In this document: positions 1,617-40,557 of the stretch, one piece after another
Layout: each line of letters begins with the position of its first letter
Position numbering within the stretch: the stretch's first letter is position 1
Origin: Candidatus Altiarchaeota archaeon
GTDB lineage: Archaea; Altiarchaeota; Altiarchaeia; IMC4; SCGC-AAA252-I15
Length of the DNA: 42,927 bases
NCBI GenBank assembly: GCA_043813075.1
Contig: JBDRLL010000017.1
Coordinates: 1 to 42,927 of the forward strand
Reading direction: 5' to 3'
Position numbers and translations under genes: made by a program
The notes under the pieces: generated by a model
The model's database searches: none
What the model saw: only the letters and a program-made list of their open reading frames with translations
What the model was told of the DNA's origin: nothing

Positions 1617-3185
1617 ATGAAGTGTATTGTAGTTACGGGGGGAGTGTTGAGCGGCCTCGGTAAGGGGGTTGTAACTGCTTCTATCGGAAGAATCCTGTCG
1701 GACATGGGTTATTCCGTTAAACCTGTTAAAATCGACGGCTACGTGAACGTAGATCCAGGCACGATGAACCCATATGAGCATGGGGAGGTATACGTGCTGG
1801 ATGATGGTAGTGAAACAGACCTTGACTTGGGGCACTATGAGAGATTTCTGAACAAAGACCTGACTGGCCAGTCAAACATGACTACTGGAAGCGTATACAA
1901 GACGGTCATAGAGAAGGAGAGGAGGGGGGAATACCTCGGGAAGACGGTCCAGGTGATACCCCACATAACCGATGAGATAAAGAGGAGGATAAACCAGTTC
2001 GACACAGACATAGTCACCATCGAAGTAGGTGGGACTGTGGGAGACATTGAGAACCAGGTCTTCATCGAGGCATTAAGACAGATGAGCCTCGACGCGATAA
2101 ACGACTTCCTATTCATACACTTGTCTTATGTGCCCATAATCCTTAGTGGAGAGCAGAAGACTAAGCCCACACAGCACAGCGTGAAAGAGCTTCTCGGCAT
2201 GGGCATTCAACCAGACATACTGATTGGAAGGTGCAGTATACCACTTTCCAAATCTACAAAAAGGAAGATAGCCCTCTTCTGCGGTGTTGGGGAGGAATGT
2301 GTTCTCAGCAACCATGACCTTGAGGACACGTACTTACTGCCGAAAGAGCTTACAAAACAGGACATAGGGCTGCTGATAACAAAGAAACTTGGTTTAAGGA
2401 AGAGGAAGCCGAAACCGTCAAAATGGGATAAGCTGGTGAACAAGATGAGGAAGCCCAGTGAAGAGGTGACTATCGGCATAGTTGGCAAATACACTGGACT
2501 TGAAGACGCTTACCTCAGCATAAAAGAGTCGTTCAAGCATGCTGGAGCAGCCAACTCGTGCAACGTCAACATGAGGTGGATAGAGTCGGATGAGATGACT
2601 GACGGAGAACTCGACAAAGTCGATGGAGTCCTGGTTCCCGGAGGATTCGGCAGCAGGGGTGTTGAAGGGAAGATAGATGCGGTTAGATACGTCAGGGAGA
2701 ACAACATACCTTTCCTTGGGATATGCCTCGGAATGCAGGTTGCTGTGATAGAATATGCTAGAAACGCGTGTGGGATGGAAAAAGCGAACACAACAGAATC
2801 AGATGAGGATACGCCCTACCCGGTGATAGACTACATTCCTGAGCAAAAGGACATAAAAGACAAGGGCGGCACAATGCGTCTCGGAGCATACAGGTGCGCC
2901 ATAAAACCAGATACACTAGCGTCAAGACTATACGGGAAGAAAGAGGTTTCAGAGCGTCATAGGCACAGATACGAGGTGAACCCGGAATACGTCAATAAAC
3001 TCGAGGAGTGCGGCCTGGTGTTCTCAGGCATGAACCCGGAGAGGAACCTGGTCGAGATGCTTGAGATACCGTCACACCCATATTTCATTGCATCGCAATT
3101 CCACCCAGAATTCAAGAGCAGGCTAGAGGAGCCGGCCCCACTGTTCAACGGCCTTGTTAAGGCTGCCTTAAAGTCTAAGAAGTAG
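1617..3185 (+). CDS. pyrG: CTP synthase
   Basis: VTGGVLSGLGKG, NVDPGTMNPYEHGEV, KTKPTQHSV; glutaminase motifs GICLG, RHRHRYE, QFHPEF. Confidence 0.98.
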   Translation: MKCIVVTGGVLSGLGKGVVTASIGRILSDMGYSVKPVKIDGYVNVDPGTMNPYEHGEVYVLDDGSETDLDLGHYERFLNKDLTGQSNMTTGSVYKTVIEKERRGEYLGKTVQVIPHITDEIKRRINQFDTDIVTIEVGGTVGDIENQVFIEALRQMSLDAINDFLFIHLSYVPIILSGEQKTKPTQHSVKELLGMGIQPDILIGRCSIPLSKSTKRKIALFCGVGEECVLSNHDLEDTYLLPKELTKQDIGLLITKKLGLRKRKPKPSKWDKLVNKMRKPSEEVTIGIVGKYTGLEDAYLSIKESFKHAGAANSCNVNMRWIESDEMTDGELDKVDGVLVPGGFGSRGVEGKIDAVRYVRENNIPFLGICLGMQVAVIEYARNACGMEKANTTESDEDTPYPVIDYIPEQKDIKDKGGTMRLGAYRCAIKPDTLASRLYGKKEVSERHRHRYEVNPEYVNKLEECGLVFSGMNPERNLVEMLEIPSHPYFIASQFHPEFKSRLEEPAPLFNGLVKAALKSKK

Positions 3186-36529: not shown

Positions 36530-36623
36530 ATATCCTCAAAAAATAGATTAAATATGTTTAAATACAAATAAAAATAGGATTTTAGTGAATCCATACGATT
36601 TTACATATCTGAGTGAATCCAGG

Positions 36624-38222
36624 ATGGACTCATTCCTTAAGCACATTAATAAAAACACGACATTAACCCTATTAACCCTGTTTTTGATAGCCTTTTCAGT
36701 CAGACTCTACGCCACCCCCTTCGACGTTGTATTGCGTAAGGACGCGGTGATATACCTGATGAAATCCATGGAGATTACAAGACATGACTTCTCCCCCATC
36801 CTAACCCACAACAGCGGATGGCCGCTTTTCATGTCACCTTTTTTGTTCCTCCTGGGAGGTAAATCGGTTTTAGGGAACATGGTTTATGCGAGGATGATGT
36901 CATGTCTGGTTGGCGCAGCGTGTGTCATACCCCTTGCATACATTTCCAGGGAGGTGCTAGAGCGGAAATACTATGCGATTCCGTTGTTTCTCTATGCTTT
37001 TTCGCCGTATATGGTGCTGTCAGCGTCAACAGCATACTCAGAGCCCTTATTCACTTTCATGCTCTTGACATCCATCTACTTTATTTACAAAGGCAGGGAA
37101 AACAGGGTTTACTTCATGGCATCATCCATAACTGCTTCGCTCGCATACTATGTCCGACCAACGGGCATATACGTGCTGGCGGCAGTCATACTGTCAATGC
37201 TCCATCACACCAGGGGGAAGACACGTAGGGGCTACATGCACGTCATGTGCGTTATACTGGTTTTTTTATTGGTTTCGCTACCGTTCCTCTACCAGAGGCA
37301 TGTGTTCTTCGGCTCGCCATTCTATTACGGGGAGAATAGCAAGTATTTCGTGGATGACCCTGAGGAGAAATGGAGTACGAATATTCCAGTGCCTTCAATA
37401 GGAGAGTATCTTACGACCCACACGTACTCGGACTACTACGACAAATTCCTGATCAACGGGCTTCTGAACATAATACTGGTTTTCATCTTGATGATAAACC
37501 CGGCACTGCTAGTCTTCTTCCCATATGGCATGATAAAGCATTTTAATGACGCGAGATACACTCCGATAATGATTGTGTTCGCATCATGGATTCTGGGACA
37601 CACACCCGCATGGAGCATACTCGGAACCATGAGACACCTCTGGGTGCTAATACCATTCATACACATCGTTAGTGTTGCCGCAATAATAGACTTGGTTAGG
37701 AGATACAGGCTGTTGACGACACTCCTACCAGTATTCCTGATTTTATTCGCATCCATATCCGTAAGTGAAGTTTCAGGATACAGGAATCAAGAGTCGAAGA
37801 GAGTGATAGATGACGGCCTTGAATGGAGTAGATGGATAGCGGAGAACGTTGAGGGTAATCTAGCGGTGATAGATGGCATGGATCTCATACTGATGAACTC
37901 AGAAAACATGACCATCGGGGGGTTTACTGGAGGCAGGTACCTTTATACGTCAAACAGGCTGAACATGACAAGACCAGGATATTTTAACGACTTCGAGCCT
38001 GCAATGCAATGGCTTGAGGAGTCAGGCATCACCCACATAGTACTAGACGAGAATAACATGGGGAGAAGGCCTTATCTAAGGGAGGTTAACCCTGCGGAGG
38101 GGGATACTGGGTATCTAACTGAAGTGTATTCAAACCAGGATACCGAATCCGCTTGGAAGATAAGGATATACCTCATTAATTGGTCGTTATACGGGGAAAA
38201 CAGGGGATACTCCCGCGTATAA
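36624..38222 (+). CDS. GT-C fold (family 39/PMT/ArnT-like) membrane glycosyltransferase, paralog 1
   Basis: Multi-TM; D-x2-Y first loop, GWPL, YSEPLF, YYVRPTG, RHLW; C-terminal soluble domain. Start is ATG 36624 or GTG 36585. Confidence 0.85.
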   Translation: MDSFLKHINKNTTLTLLTLFLIAFSVRLYATPFDVVLRKDAVIYLMKSMEITRHDFSPILTHNSGWPLFMSPFLFLLGGKSVLGNMVYARMMSCLVGAACVIPLAYISREVLERKYYAIPLFLYAFSPYMVLSASTAYSEPLFTFMLLTSIYFIYKGRENRVYFMASSITASLAYYVRPTGIYVLAAVILSMLHHTRGKTRRGYMHVMCVILVFLLVSLPFLYQRHVFFGSPFYYGENSKYFVDDPEEKWSTNIPVPSIGEYLTTHTYSDYYDKFLINGLLNIILVFILMINPALLVFFPYGMIKHFNDARYTPIMIVFASWILGHTPAWSILGTMRHLWVLIPFIHIVSVAAIIDLVRRYRLLTTLLPVFLILFASISVSEVSGYRNQESKRVIDDGLEWSRWIAENVEGNLAVIDGMDLILMNSENMTIGGFTGGRYLYTSNRLNMTRPGYFNDFEPAMQWLEESGITHIVLDENNMGRRPYLREVNPAEGDTGYLTEVYSNQDTESAWKIRIYLINWSLYGENRGYSRV

Positions 38223-38262
38223 TGCACCGACAGCTTTTTAAGGGCATAAATCTAGTATTTAA

Positions 38263-38394
38263 TAGGTGGGTTGGGGTTTACTCTGATAGTCGACTGGTAT
38301 TCAGGGGAAACACCTCCTATTACAGTAGTAAGCTGGATTACCACGCAAAAAGACCAACCTCGTTTGTGTTGTTCAGCCTCGCCCAACCCGCCTA
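38263..38394 (+). ncRNA. Candidate ~132-nt structured ncRNA of unknown class
   Basis: 13-bp closing stem 38263-38275 / 38382-38394; inner stem 38295-38304 / 38333-38343; TATA-like TTTTTAAG at 38235-38242; T-rich sequence downstream. Confidence 0.6.
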
Positions 38395-38440
38395 CTCTTG
38401 AGGAATCTTTTATTCTATCCTACACATATCATACCCAAGA

Positions 38441-38911
38441 ATGGCCCTAACAGAAGACGGTAAATTCCAGAGACCATCGTGGGACGAGTACTTCGCGAAG
38501 ATAGTTGAAGACGTTGCCAGACGTAGCACATGCTTTAAGAGGCAAATAGGAGCGCTCGTTGTCAGCAAGGACCATGAGATAGTGTCTACCGGATTCAACG
38601 GGAACGTGCGCGGCGCAAAACACTGTGACGACATAGGATGCATAAAGGATGAGATGGGCTTGAAGAGCGGTGAAGGCCAGGAATGGTGCACCGCAGTCCA
38701 CGCGGAGCAGAACGCCCTCCTGCAGGCCGGGAAGTCGAGTCGCGGCTCCACGCTATACGTGAACGCCTTCCCCTGCAAGATTTGCGCGAGGCTCATCGTC
38801 AATGCAGGCATAAGGAAGGTTGTTGTTTCAGGGGAATACACCGACAAGGACGGTCTGAAGACGCTGGCTGAATGCGGCGTGGAAGTGGTTCACGTCAAAC
38901 TGGGTAAGTGA
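38441..38911 (+). CDS. dCMP deaminase / ComEB family
   Basis: RPSWDEYF, RSTC, TGFNG, VHAEQNA, PCKIC. Confidence 0.93.
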   Translation: MALTEDGKFQRPSWDEYFAKIVEDVARRSTCFKRQIGALVVSKDHEIVSTGFNGNVRGAKHCDDIGCIKDEMGLKSGEGQEWCTAVHAEQNALLQAGKSSRGSTLYVNAFPCKICARLIVNAGIRKVVVSGEYTDKDGLKTLAECGVEVVHVKLGK

Positions 38912-38925
38912 GTTAGTCTCATAAC

Positions 38926-40557
38926 ATGGATTTCACGAGGGCGTTGGATTACGTTGAAGAGCGGGTGGGATCGGCTCTAAGGAAGTCTGAAAAGCATTTT
39001 GCAGCCACCGTTCTGACACTTTTCCTTGTAAGCCTGTGCGTGAGGCTGTGGGCCGCGCCTTCAGGCATTGTTTTAAGGGAGGACGGCTTCATCTACCTTC
39101 TGAAGGCTATTGAGATTACGAGGGGTAACTTCTCCCCATTGTTGTCTAGAAGCATAGGCTGGCCCCTGTTCATGTCCCCCATGCTCGGCCTTCTTGATGT
39201 TGAGGATGTGTTCCAGGGCATGCGTTACGCCAGGCTTATCTCAGAGTTCCTGGGAGCATTAACCATAATACCCTTAGCGTATGTTGGGTTACGACTCTTT
39301 GAATGCAGATACACGCTCATGCTTCTGGCGCTATTTGCCTTTTCCCCAGGACTAGTCGAGTCATCTGGTGCGGCCACCAGTGAATCGCTCTTCATCATTC
39401 TGCTGTTGATGATGGTGTACTTCATGATGAAATCGCTTGAAGACGTGAGGTACGCCCTGTTATCCGCAGTGTTCGGTGCTCTATCGTACTATGTCCGCCC
39501 CAACGGGATATTCTCTCTGTTTATCGTGCTATCTTCCATCCTGGTTCTAAGGGGAAACATCAATGGCCTGCGCATCAGACACTACGTCTACATCATCCTG
39601 GTTTTCTCGGTCGTGTCCGCGCCATTCCTGCTGCAGAGACACTCGTATTTCGGGTCAGCGTTCTACTACGGTGAGAACTCCAAGTATTTCGCGGATAGTT
39701 ACGAGCAGGTCTGGTGCGGCAACATCCAGCCACCCTCCCTGACAGAGTATGTTAGGACTCATTCCCTAAGCGAATACCATAGGAAATTCGTTTTTGACGG
39801 TTTAGCCAGGATTATCATCAACATCATGTATTCAACACACCCCGTGATAACAGCCCTATTTGCGTACGGCATATTCAGGCACGGCATTGAGGAGAAGTAC
39901 ATTCCAATGACAGCAGTGTTCCTAGCGTGGATAATCGGGTTCACACCCACATGGGATGTATTCGAGAGGATGAGGCACCTATGGCCGCTCATACCCTTCA
40001 TGCTAGTGTTTGCCACATCATCAGTCAGAGAACTTCTTTGGGGAAGAAGGCATGCTATGACGATCATCCTCATTCTACTTGCCGTTATGACATACCATTC
40101 GTTCATCGAGGTGGCGGGTAATCGAGACGTTATGCTGAGTGATGACAGGGAAGATGGCCTTGACTGGGGTGGGTGGGTTGCGGGGAACGTGAGGGGCAAT
40201 GCTGTTGTGGTTGAAGGCGAAGACCTGGTAATGATGAACCTCCCGGACACTATTGTCGGCGGAGTCGACGACACCATCCACACGTACATATCGCCTTCAG
40301 GCCTTAACACGTCACAGCCAGGTTGTTTTGAAGACTTCAATTCGTCCATGGAGTGGTTCAATGAGAATGGGGTGACACACATTATTGTTGAGGAGAGTCA
40401 CATGTACAAGCGGCCGTACTTGAGGGAAGTCTTGTACGGCAGTGGTAAGCCATATTTAACCGAGGTTTATTCAAATTATGATACAGGGAAGAGATGGAGG
40501 GTAAAGGCGTACCTAATCAACTGGACTTTATATGATGGTGTCTATGATGGAGGATAA
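38926..40557 (+). CDS. GT-C fold (family 39/PMT/ArnT-like) membrane glycosyltransferase, paralog 2
   Basis: Shares GWPLFMSP, YYVRPxG, FYYGENSKYF, MRHLW, RPYLREV, YLTEVYSN and YLINW with paralog 1. Confidence 0.85.
   Translation: MDFTRALDYVEERVGSALRKSEKHFAATVLTLFLVSLCVRLWAAPSGIVLREDGFIYLLKAIEITRGNFSPLLSRSIGWPLFMSPMLGLLDVEDVFQGMRYARLISEFLGALTIIPLAYVGLRLFECRYTLMLLALFAFSPGLVESSGAATSESLFIILLLMMVYFMMKSLEDVRYALLSAVFGALSYYVRPNGIFSLFIVLSSILVLRGNINGLRIRHYVYIILVFSVVSAPFLLQRHSYFGSAFYYGENSKYFADSYEQVWCGNIQPPSLTEYVRTHSLSEYHRKFVFDGLARIIINIMYSTHPVITALFAYGIFRHGIEEKYIPMTAVFLAWIIGFTPTWDVFERMRHLWPLIPFMLVFATSSVRELLWGRRHAMTIILILLAVMTYHSFIEVAGNRDVMLSDDREDGLDWGGWVAGNVRGNAVVVEGEDLVMMNLPDTIVGGVDDTIHTYISPSGLNTSQPGCFEDFNSSMEWFNENGVTHIIVEESHMYKRPYLREVLYGSGKPYLTEVYSNYDTGKRWRVKAYLINWTLYDGVYDGG

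Follow-up and report, generated by a model that had tools for sequence, protein, structure and literature searches.

The question raised by this locus is what occupies an unusually long gap in front of the dCMP deaminase gene (dcd) of a Candidatus Altiarchaeota archaeon. The window analysed here is the whole 42,927-nt stretch of contig JBDRLL010000017.1 from the source genome (G000, ~1.8 Mb, 89% complete), and positions refer to this window unless another contig is named. An ORF that ends at 38222 and the dcd ORF that starts at 38441 enclose 218 nt (38223-38440), whereas adjacent genes overlap or sit 0-55 nt apart, so that the ORF coordinates confirm what a first-pass annotation, made from the letters alone, had said of the gap; all the other coordinates given in that annotation also check out against the sequence. 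It had further proposed that the gap holds a structured element of ~132 nt, and such an element is indeed seen, with a length of ~130 nt (38263-38394, core 38265-38392) on the + strand.

The fold of this element is more than chance. When the minimum free energy (MFE) of the segment 38258-38400 was compared by RNAfold with 200 dinucleotide shuffles, a check that the annotation had suggested, the + strand gave -47.9 kcal/mol against -35.7 +/- 3.7 kcal/mol (z = -3.26), with 0/200 shuffles as good, and the - strand gave z = -2.36, with 3/200 shuffles as good. The element is present in a single copy, with no paralog found in G000 by blastn-short of its own genome and by motif counts, and no reading frame is open across all nine homologs (see below). 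The reading preferred here, which rests on sequence comparison, is that the gap on balance probably holds a stand-alone RNA gene, whose product would be a structured small RNA of ~130 nt, specific to its clade and transcribed from the + strand. That a real structured RNA gene lies on this strand is very likely and, if so, it is likely that the RNA stands alone rather than acting in cis; any specific mechanism in trans would have to be regarded as doubtful.

Distribution and comparative fold

Nine sequences carry the RNA, seven from the 61 genomes searched in the phylum and two from metagenome contigs. All seven genomes belong to one family, in which they make up a third of the genomes searched (7/21), and to three of its genera, g1 (2/2), g2 (2/2) and g4 (3/5). 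By blastn the region was recovered from 4 of 40 relatives, with matches that cover the RNA core alone, flanking non-coding sequence not being conserved between genera, and a first covariance model (R1) added two further genomes. Covariance-model searches of the order (49 genomes), the phylum (61) and the family (21, E up to 1) all returned the same seven genomes, and a structure-based model (R3) recovered only these seven, with the threshold relaxed to E up to 1. An exact-pattern scan of genome contigs gave five loci, namely four members of the family and one chance match in a Bacteroidetes MAG, while the same scan gave 0 matches in viral contigs and seven loci in metagenome contigs; among the latter, L023 and L025 are new members, L024 duplicates G018, and the rest were dropped as chance matches, L021, L022 and L026 having no R1 match and L027 a weak one (14.3 bits, E = 0.091). 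The RNA is thus specific to a small clade of related uncultured archaea (Altiarchaeales). Its conserved blocks are GGUGGGUUGGGG, UGGUAUUCAGGGAAACACCUCCUAU, GCUGGAUUACCAC and GACCAACCUCGUUU, and the word GCUG(G/A)AUU(A/G)CCA is retained in 9/9 homologs. The three sequences of genus g4 fit the P2 domain (described below) poorly, with R3 scores of 21.7-29.1 bits. Collecting the homologous intergenic regions, as the annotation had recommended, therefore yielded nine sequences, in which pairing is kept through sequence changes.

The fold is closed by P1, in which TAGGTGGGTTGGG (38263-75) pairs with CCCAACCCGCCTA (38382-94) over 13 bp with one U-G; this is the closing stem that had been proposed at the outset, and it is kept in the homologs. 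Across six sequences P1 is 98.4% paired, with two pairs changed on both sides, and, apart from the structural alignment A8 (see below), the P1 columns of the nine sequences show U-A, U-G, A-U, G-C and C-G at the same positions. Inside P1, the CUGA at 38283-86 and the UCAG at 38373-76, both present as had been noted, form P1b, for which a local UCAG (38301-38304) is an alternative partner. In other homologs P1 is extended by helices that are unrelated in sequence, of 9 bp in G018, 7 bp in G013 and 6-7 bp in G012, M023 and M025.

The second main stem of the annotation, TGGTATTCAG (38295-304) with CTGGATTACCA (38333-43), fared less uniformly: the positions are correct, but the helix is missing from the RNAfold MFE structure and shows no covariation except in G020. 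In the comparative model it corresponds to P2, formed by UGGUAUUC (38295-302) and GAUUACCA (38336-43) with one U-U mismatch. P2 is 100% paired in six sequences, yet 6/7 of its pairs never vary, so that its near-invariance neither supports nor refutes pairing there; G020 has one compensatory change from C-G to U-A, the helix is missing in G013, and its 3' strand falls inside the most conserved block of the RNA, CUGGAUUACCAC (38333-38344). P2 encloses two small hairpins. P2a (AGGGG 38303-07 with CUCCU 38314-18, loop AAACAC) is 82% paired and without covariation; neither G018 nor G020 has it, and that of G013 would face competition from a local hairpin. P2b (CAGU 38323-26 with GCUG 38332-35, loop AGUAA) is found in 7/9 sequences, and in the metagenome homologs it switches to CGGCA/UGCUG and CGGCAU/AUGCUG.

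The remaining arm is the P3 hairpin (CGCAAA 38344-49 with UUUGUG 38363-68, plus GA/UC at 38352-53/38360-61), whose loop, CCAACC, lies within the conserved GACCAACCUCG (38352-38362). P3 appears as a hairpin in 7/9 local folds, on stems that are unrelated in sequence: CACAAA/UUUGUG, ACAUCAGAA/UUUUGCUGU, CAAAAGG/CCUUUUG, CUAGAAGA/UCUUCUAG and GAAACU/AGUUUC. Two of the smaller helices suggested earlier have to be given up, since the GTC/GAC helix would fold GTCGAC, a palindrome without a loop, on itself, and the CAAC of the CAAC/GTTG helix sits in the loop of P3, which is supported by the homologs and with which that helix therefore conflicts.

P1, P2b and P3 thus keep pairing through changed sequences. 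In A8, an alignment of six sequences fitted to the structure derived from G000, 91.7% of 216 cells pair, compared with 37.6-50.0% when the partners are slid by 1-3 columns, and five pairs are altered on both sides, compared with 0-2 in the slid controls. The covariation score of A8 is 0.144 (<=0.070 in the slid controls) and was reached by 0/500 shuffles, a statistic that overstates independence because the nine sequences are close kin. By hand count, G-U makes up 23 of the roughly 198 paired cells in A8; such cells would be A-C on the - strand, which favours the + polarity that had first been read from the G-U pairs of the two main stems. As MAFFT misplaced the variable helices and a model built on a single sequence (R2) placed P1b and P3 wrongly in the divergent sequences, the helices of each sequence were assigned by hand and only their pairing was checked by script.

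For 38265-38392 the comparative model has an energy of -40.8 kcal/mol, against -44.4 kcal/mol for the RNAfold MFE structure. The latter retains the terminal stem and P3, and in G000 it pairs the CUGA of P1b with the local UCAG, so that a local CUCUGA/UCAGGG hairpin replaces P1b and P2; G013 has only the local hairpin (UCCGA/UCGGA). The P1b/P2 arrangement and the local hairpin could represent two conformations of the RNA.

Relation to known RNA families

A long stem that joins the two ends is shared by many stable RNAs, and the element could in principle be a known housekeeping RNA in disguise, such as an intron-bearing tRNA, a 5S rRNA, an SRP RNA, an RNase P RNA, a C/D or H/ACA guide RNA or a Y-like RNA. 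The Infernal search against Rfam that had been advised for this purpose identified no known family in the window or in six homolog loci. With Rfam 15 the whole window gave 0 matches at gathering level, and 38150-38500, searched at E up to 10, gave no match to a tRNA, guide RNA, ribozyme or riboswitch, the noise at this level consisting of mir-3578 (E = 0.77, - strand) and a fragment of a human lncRNA; in E-value mode nothing recurred among the six homolog loci. ARAGORN called 0 tRNA genes in the window. The earlier statement that no tRNA, SRP, 5S or hammerhead consensus is visible thus holds according to Rfam, ARAGORN and motif counts alike.

The families can also be considered one at a time. 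A tRNA is recognized by its cloverleaf, with a 7-bp acceptor stem, a T-arm (UUCRA loop) beside the 3' strand of the acceptor and an anticodon arm. An intron-bearing tRNA deserves attention because the conserved blocks of the RNA total ~75 nt and archaeal tRNA genes with long or multiple introns are many in G000; the element differs from them in that P1 is a continuous terminal helix of 13 bp without a T-arm, which rules out a tRNA of this kind, and no T-loop or anticodon arm is present, no cloverleaf can be built and no tRNA match was obtained with ARAGORN or Rfam. 5S rRNA and Y RNA resemble the element in size (~120-130 nt) and in having ends joined by a long stem, and differ from it in that neither family's consensus occurs in the RNA. 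The genome has its own 5S rRNA (RF00001) at C33:50458-50573 (71.2 bits), with no match in the window, and its archaeal SRP RNA (RF01857, 150.2 bits) and RNase P RNA (RF00373, 65.3 bits) are likewise encoded on other contigs and not in the window. The partner of Y RNA is the Ro/TROVE protein, whose gene is usually nearby, and the TROVE/Ro domain (PF05731) had 0 matches in G000, which is 89% complete.

In C/D box sRNAs a terminal stem adjoins a C box (RUGAUGA) close to the 5' end and a D box (CUGA) close to the 3' end. The C box was found in 0/9 homologs, and CUGA in 5/9, near the 5' end (positions 15-19) in four and at position 60 in G020, never beside the 3' strand of P1. H/ACA sRNAs consist of a single hairpin with a pseudouridylation pocket and a K-turn, whose basal stem is directly followed by an ANA (ACA) box. 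An ANA within <=8 nt after P1 occurs in 3/9 homologs and is absent in G000, and in place of one hairpin the RNA has a branched fold. As for self-cleaving RNAs, the hammerhead core consists of CUGANGA ... GAAA; CUGANGA was found in 0/9 homologs, and neither the hammerhead nor the other self-cleaving ribozymes of Rfam gave a match. In favour of a disguised housekeeping RNA it can be said that the long introns and the small number of tRNAs called by ARAGORN (21) make unusual tRNA genes plausible in this genome, that the terminal stem is a common trait and that CUGA occurs in five homologs; set against the negative searches at the locus and its homologs, the 5S, SRP and RNase P RNAs encoded elsewhere, the T-arm-free P1, the missing C box, the rare ANA box and the missing TROVE/Ro, this leaves such an identity scarcely credible.

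Some peculiarities of the other RNA genes of G000 may be recorded here. On contig C6 the genes for tRNA-Asn, tRNA-Ala and tRNA-Asp (2939-3135, 84490-84643 and 87750-87910) are interrupted at the anticodon loop by introns of 80-122 nt that share a pyrimidine/purine word, CCUUUUCUUUCUU..AGGAAAGAAAG ... GAAAAGAAAGAA. With introns allowed, ARAGORN finds only 21 tRNAs in the 1.8 Mb of G000, several of them artefacts, which suggests that many tRNA genes of this genome are probably unusual. On contig C24 (5051-6565) a complete tRNA-Met is followed ~1.4 kb on by a repeat of its 3' part, for which ARAGORN calls an intron of 1439 nt and which looks like an attachment site that was duplicated by an inserted element. 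The RNase P RNA match (L015, G000:C6:73061-73344, - strand) scores under the Rfam cut-off of 84 bits, which marks this lineage's RNase P RNA as divergent.

Predicted promoters and the genes around the RNA

Upstream of the RNA a TATA-like box, TTTTTAAG (38235-38242, + strand), lies 20 nt before the 5' arm of P1 and 22 nt before GGTGGG, in agreement with the distance of about 21-23 nt first reported for it. All nine homologs have a counterpart, an 8-nt T/A box (TTTTTAAG, TTTTATAT, TTTTATAA, TTTATTAA, TTTTAAAG or TTTTTATC) that ends 21-24 nt 5' of the first G of GGYGGG, a distance typical of archaeal TATA boxes relative to the start of transcription. A box at this distance points to a start at the foot of P1, and the 5' end of the RNA would accordingly be placed at about 38264-38265.

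This promoter-like box also bears on the possibility that the locus does not encode a functional RNA at all, the element being a decaying remnant, a DNA-level element in the promoter region between aIF5A and dcd, or sequence conserved through kinship only. Such readings would suit the narrow distribution over three genera, with the element in 3/5 genomes of g4, and the g4 copies, which have strongly diverged from each other and are losing parts of the P2 domain, as in decay. They are nevertheless very unlikely, given that the box keeps its distance in 9/9 homologs although the sequence of the spacer between it and the RNA is not conserved, that double changes preserve the pairing of the stems while the blocks in loops and junctions stay fixed, that the G-U pairs make the pairing strand-specific, and that the blastn matches between genera are confined to the RNA core.

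On its 3' side the RNA is followed by dcd (38441-38911, + strand; Pfam dCMP_cyt_deam_1, E = 8.8e-23), which lies outside the RNA and is found directly downstream of it and in the same orientation in 9/9 homologs. A gene for a P-loop kinase follows dcd in G001, G012, G018 and G002, and in G000 it comes after a second glycosyltransferase gene, these being the five loci that extend far enough. The other neighbour of the RNA varies: it is aIF5A, on the opposite strand, in G001, G018 and G020, a PMT_2 glycosyltransferase gene in G000 and a gene for a 229-aa protein in G012. In G000, paralogous genes for PMT_2-type glycosyltransferases (545 and 543 aa, at 36585-38222 and 38926-40557) flank the RNA and dcd, and they look like insertions because aIF5A, the RNA, dcd and the kinase gene are contiguous in relatives.

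A fixed downstream gene combined with a variable upstream neighbour is the pattern typical of cis-regulatory RNAs, and the main competing explanation is that the element is a 5' leader, either a riboswitch or a protein-binding attenuator, that controls the dcd and kinase genes. It would act by ligand-dependent termination at the T-tract that follows P1 or by masking of the dcd ribosome-binding site with its CCUCC. The build of the RNA is aptamer-like: P1 closes a multi-way junction, bases in the junction and the loops are conserved, and stems covary. Junction-type riboswitches such as the TPP (THI) riboswitch share these traits with it, as well as a place in front of a metabolic gene. The words CUGA... 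and CUGGAU-ACCA of the RNA presumably recall the THI-box, as a lead only, and to our knowledge dcd has no link to thiamine. What sets the element apart from riboswitches is that no Rfam riboswitch model matches it at E up to 10 and that, in 8/9 homologs, a promoter-like box precedes dcd, a riboswitch or other cis-acting leader being part of the 5' UTR of the mRNA that it regulates, with no promoter between the element and the gene.

In G000 a T-rich box, TTTTATTC (38408-38415, + strand), where a T-rich tract had been noted after the 3' arm, lies 25 nt before the ATG of dcd at 38441; it is likely to be the TATA box of a leaderless dcd mRNA and may possibly serve as an oligo-T stop for the RNA. 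By hand reading, a second TATA-like box is present between the RNA and dcd in 8/9 homologs, and in 4/9 (G000, G002, M025 and G020) it stops 23-25 nt short of the dcd ATG, a distance at which the dcd mRNA would be leaderless and the RNA left out of the transcript. G001 is the exception and fits a leader better, since neither a TATA-like box nor a T-run can be clearly made out between its RNA and dcd, its dcd has a Shine-Dalgarno (SD) sequence, and co-transcription of the RNA and dcd would be possible there. Further support for a leader comes from a T-run of at least four within 30 nt 3' of P1 in 7/9 homologs, only 2 nt away in G002, and from five dcd genes with an SD-like GGUGA/AGGUG that CCUCC could mask. 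Against it, the T-run follows P1 at anything from 2 to 17 nt, which is unlike a coupled terminator, and in the four leaderless cases there is no SD that could be masked.

Relatives without the RNA show how dcd is arranged in its absence. Ten such dcd loci have short gaps, and close reading of five of them placed a TATA-like box near the dcd start, ~23-27 nt ahead of the ATG in G010, G011, G014 and G006 and 22 nt ahead of a short dcd leader in G016. No remnant of the RNA was found in the ten loci, where the model matches are noise (best E = 0.35). Since these relatives share the layout of the dcd promoter, dcd appears to keep its own ancestral promoter, with the RNA gene placed upstream of it, and the gene does not need the element. 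Taken together, the second box in front of dcd and the dcd layout of the RNA-less relatives point to a stand-alone RNA and not to a dcd leader, and the latter is improbable. Of the two readings that the annotation had left side by side, the undescribed stable RNA is upheld by its conservation, its compensatory changes, its promoter-like box in 9/9 homologs and the lack of an Rfam match, and the leader of the dcd operon is disfavoured.

Two observations on dcd itself may be added. The dcd genes seem to alternate between leaderless ones, with the box 23-27 nt before the ATG, and ones with short leaders that carry a GGUGA/AGGUG SD, among them the gene of G018, which has a TTG start. In the RNA-less G006 (L037), whose gap is longer, direct repeats of a TTATATTCCCA-like word occur ~250 nt upstream of dcd, with TTTAATTCCCA nearby.

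Possible function and significance

For a stand-alone RNA the following course of events can be proposed. An archaeal TATA-type promoter 22 nt upstream would set the start of transcription at the foot of the 13-bp P1, and transcription would probably end in the T-rich box 14-21 nt downstream, which would double as the TATA box of dcd. In the predicted transcript, P1 and its extension would lead into a three-way junction, of which one arm would be the P3 hairpin, with the conserved ACCAACCUC in its loop, and the other the near-invariant P2 domain (UGGUAUUC ... AGGG-AAACA-CCUCCU ... GCUGGAUUACCA), branching into two small hairpins. We infer that such an RNA would act in trans and not as a dcd leader, most likely either within a protein complex, as its RNA component, or by presenting a folded surface for recognition. 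The conservation in sequence of whole helices, together with the nested junctions, favours an RNA that is recognized by protein or has a tertiary structure over a simple base-pairing sRNA.

In a less likely variant, the C-rich motifs CACCUCCU and ACCUC would contact purine-rich, SD-like RNA. The CACCUCC of P2a (38311-38317) is identical to 7 nt of the 3' end of the 16S rRNA of G000 itself, and the conserved block GCUGGAUUACCAC resembles the 16S words that precede the match. In all, the G000 RNA shares three seven-mers with the 16S tail, compared with 0.36 expected, and 28/1000 shuffles reach as many; in G012, 212/1000 shuffles are as high, and G020 shares no seven-mers. The likeness is therefore weak and not robust across homologs, and it was dropped as evidence. 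Complementary sites are not enriched in the genome, the complement of an 11-mer occurring once in 1.8 Mb against an estimated ~0.9 by chance.

Comparable archaeal RNAs are sRNA154 and sRNA41 of Methanosarcina mazei, which passages of one article (PMC5867862) describe as intergenic sRNAs in which an anti-RBS sequence in a loop masks the ribosome-binding sites of targets. As far as these passages go, the candidate would resemble them as a stand-alone intergenic archaeal RNA, and its CACCUCC may be compared with their anti-RBS sequence. It differs from them in that it has no sequence or Rfam relation to them, has a closing stem and nested three-way junctions, and holds its CCUCC motif partly paired in P2a.

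A more far-reaching, and unlikely, interpretation is that the RNA, with its nested three-way junctions and invariant core, belongs to a new class of complex-folded archaeal RNAs that do more than base-pair with targets. It could then be a sensor of a nucleotide or metabolite for the expression of dcd and the dNMP-kinase, conceivably by read-through or interference where terminator and promoter overlap, or a clade-specific subunit of a ribonucleoprotein, possibly as a mimic of the 16S 3' end.

The literature search found no paper on non-coding RNAs of Altiarchaeales, and the article text of a Ca. Altiarchaeum metatranscriptome study (PMC12133352), as searched by term, does not use non-coding, ncRNA, sRNA or intergenic. 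The sequences compared here would therefore define a previously undescribed RNA family, well delimited and of narrow distribution, which is testable in that it comes with a predicted promoter and 5' end and a comparative fold, and its invariant core points to a specific partner. Should the RNA be merely a lineage-specific sRNA, it would be of local interest; should it prove to regulate nucleotide metabolism or to form part of a new ribonucleoprotein, it would be one more example of a complex structured RNA in archaea, from which very few are known.
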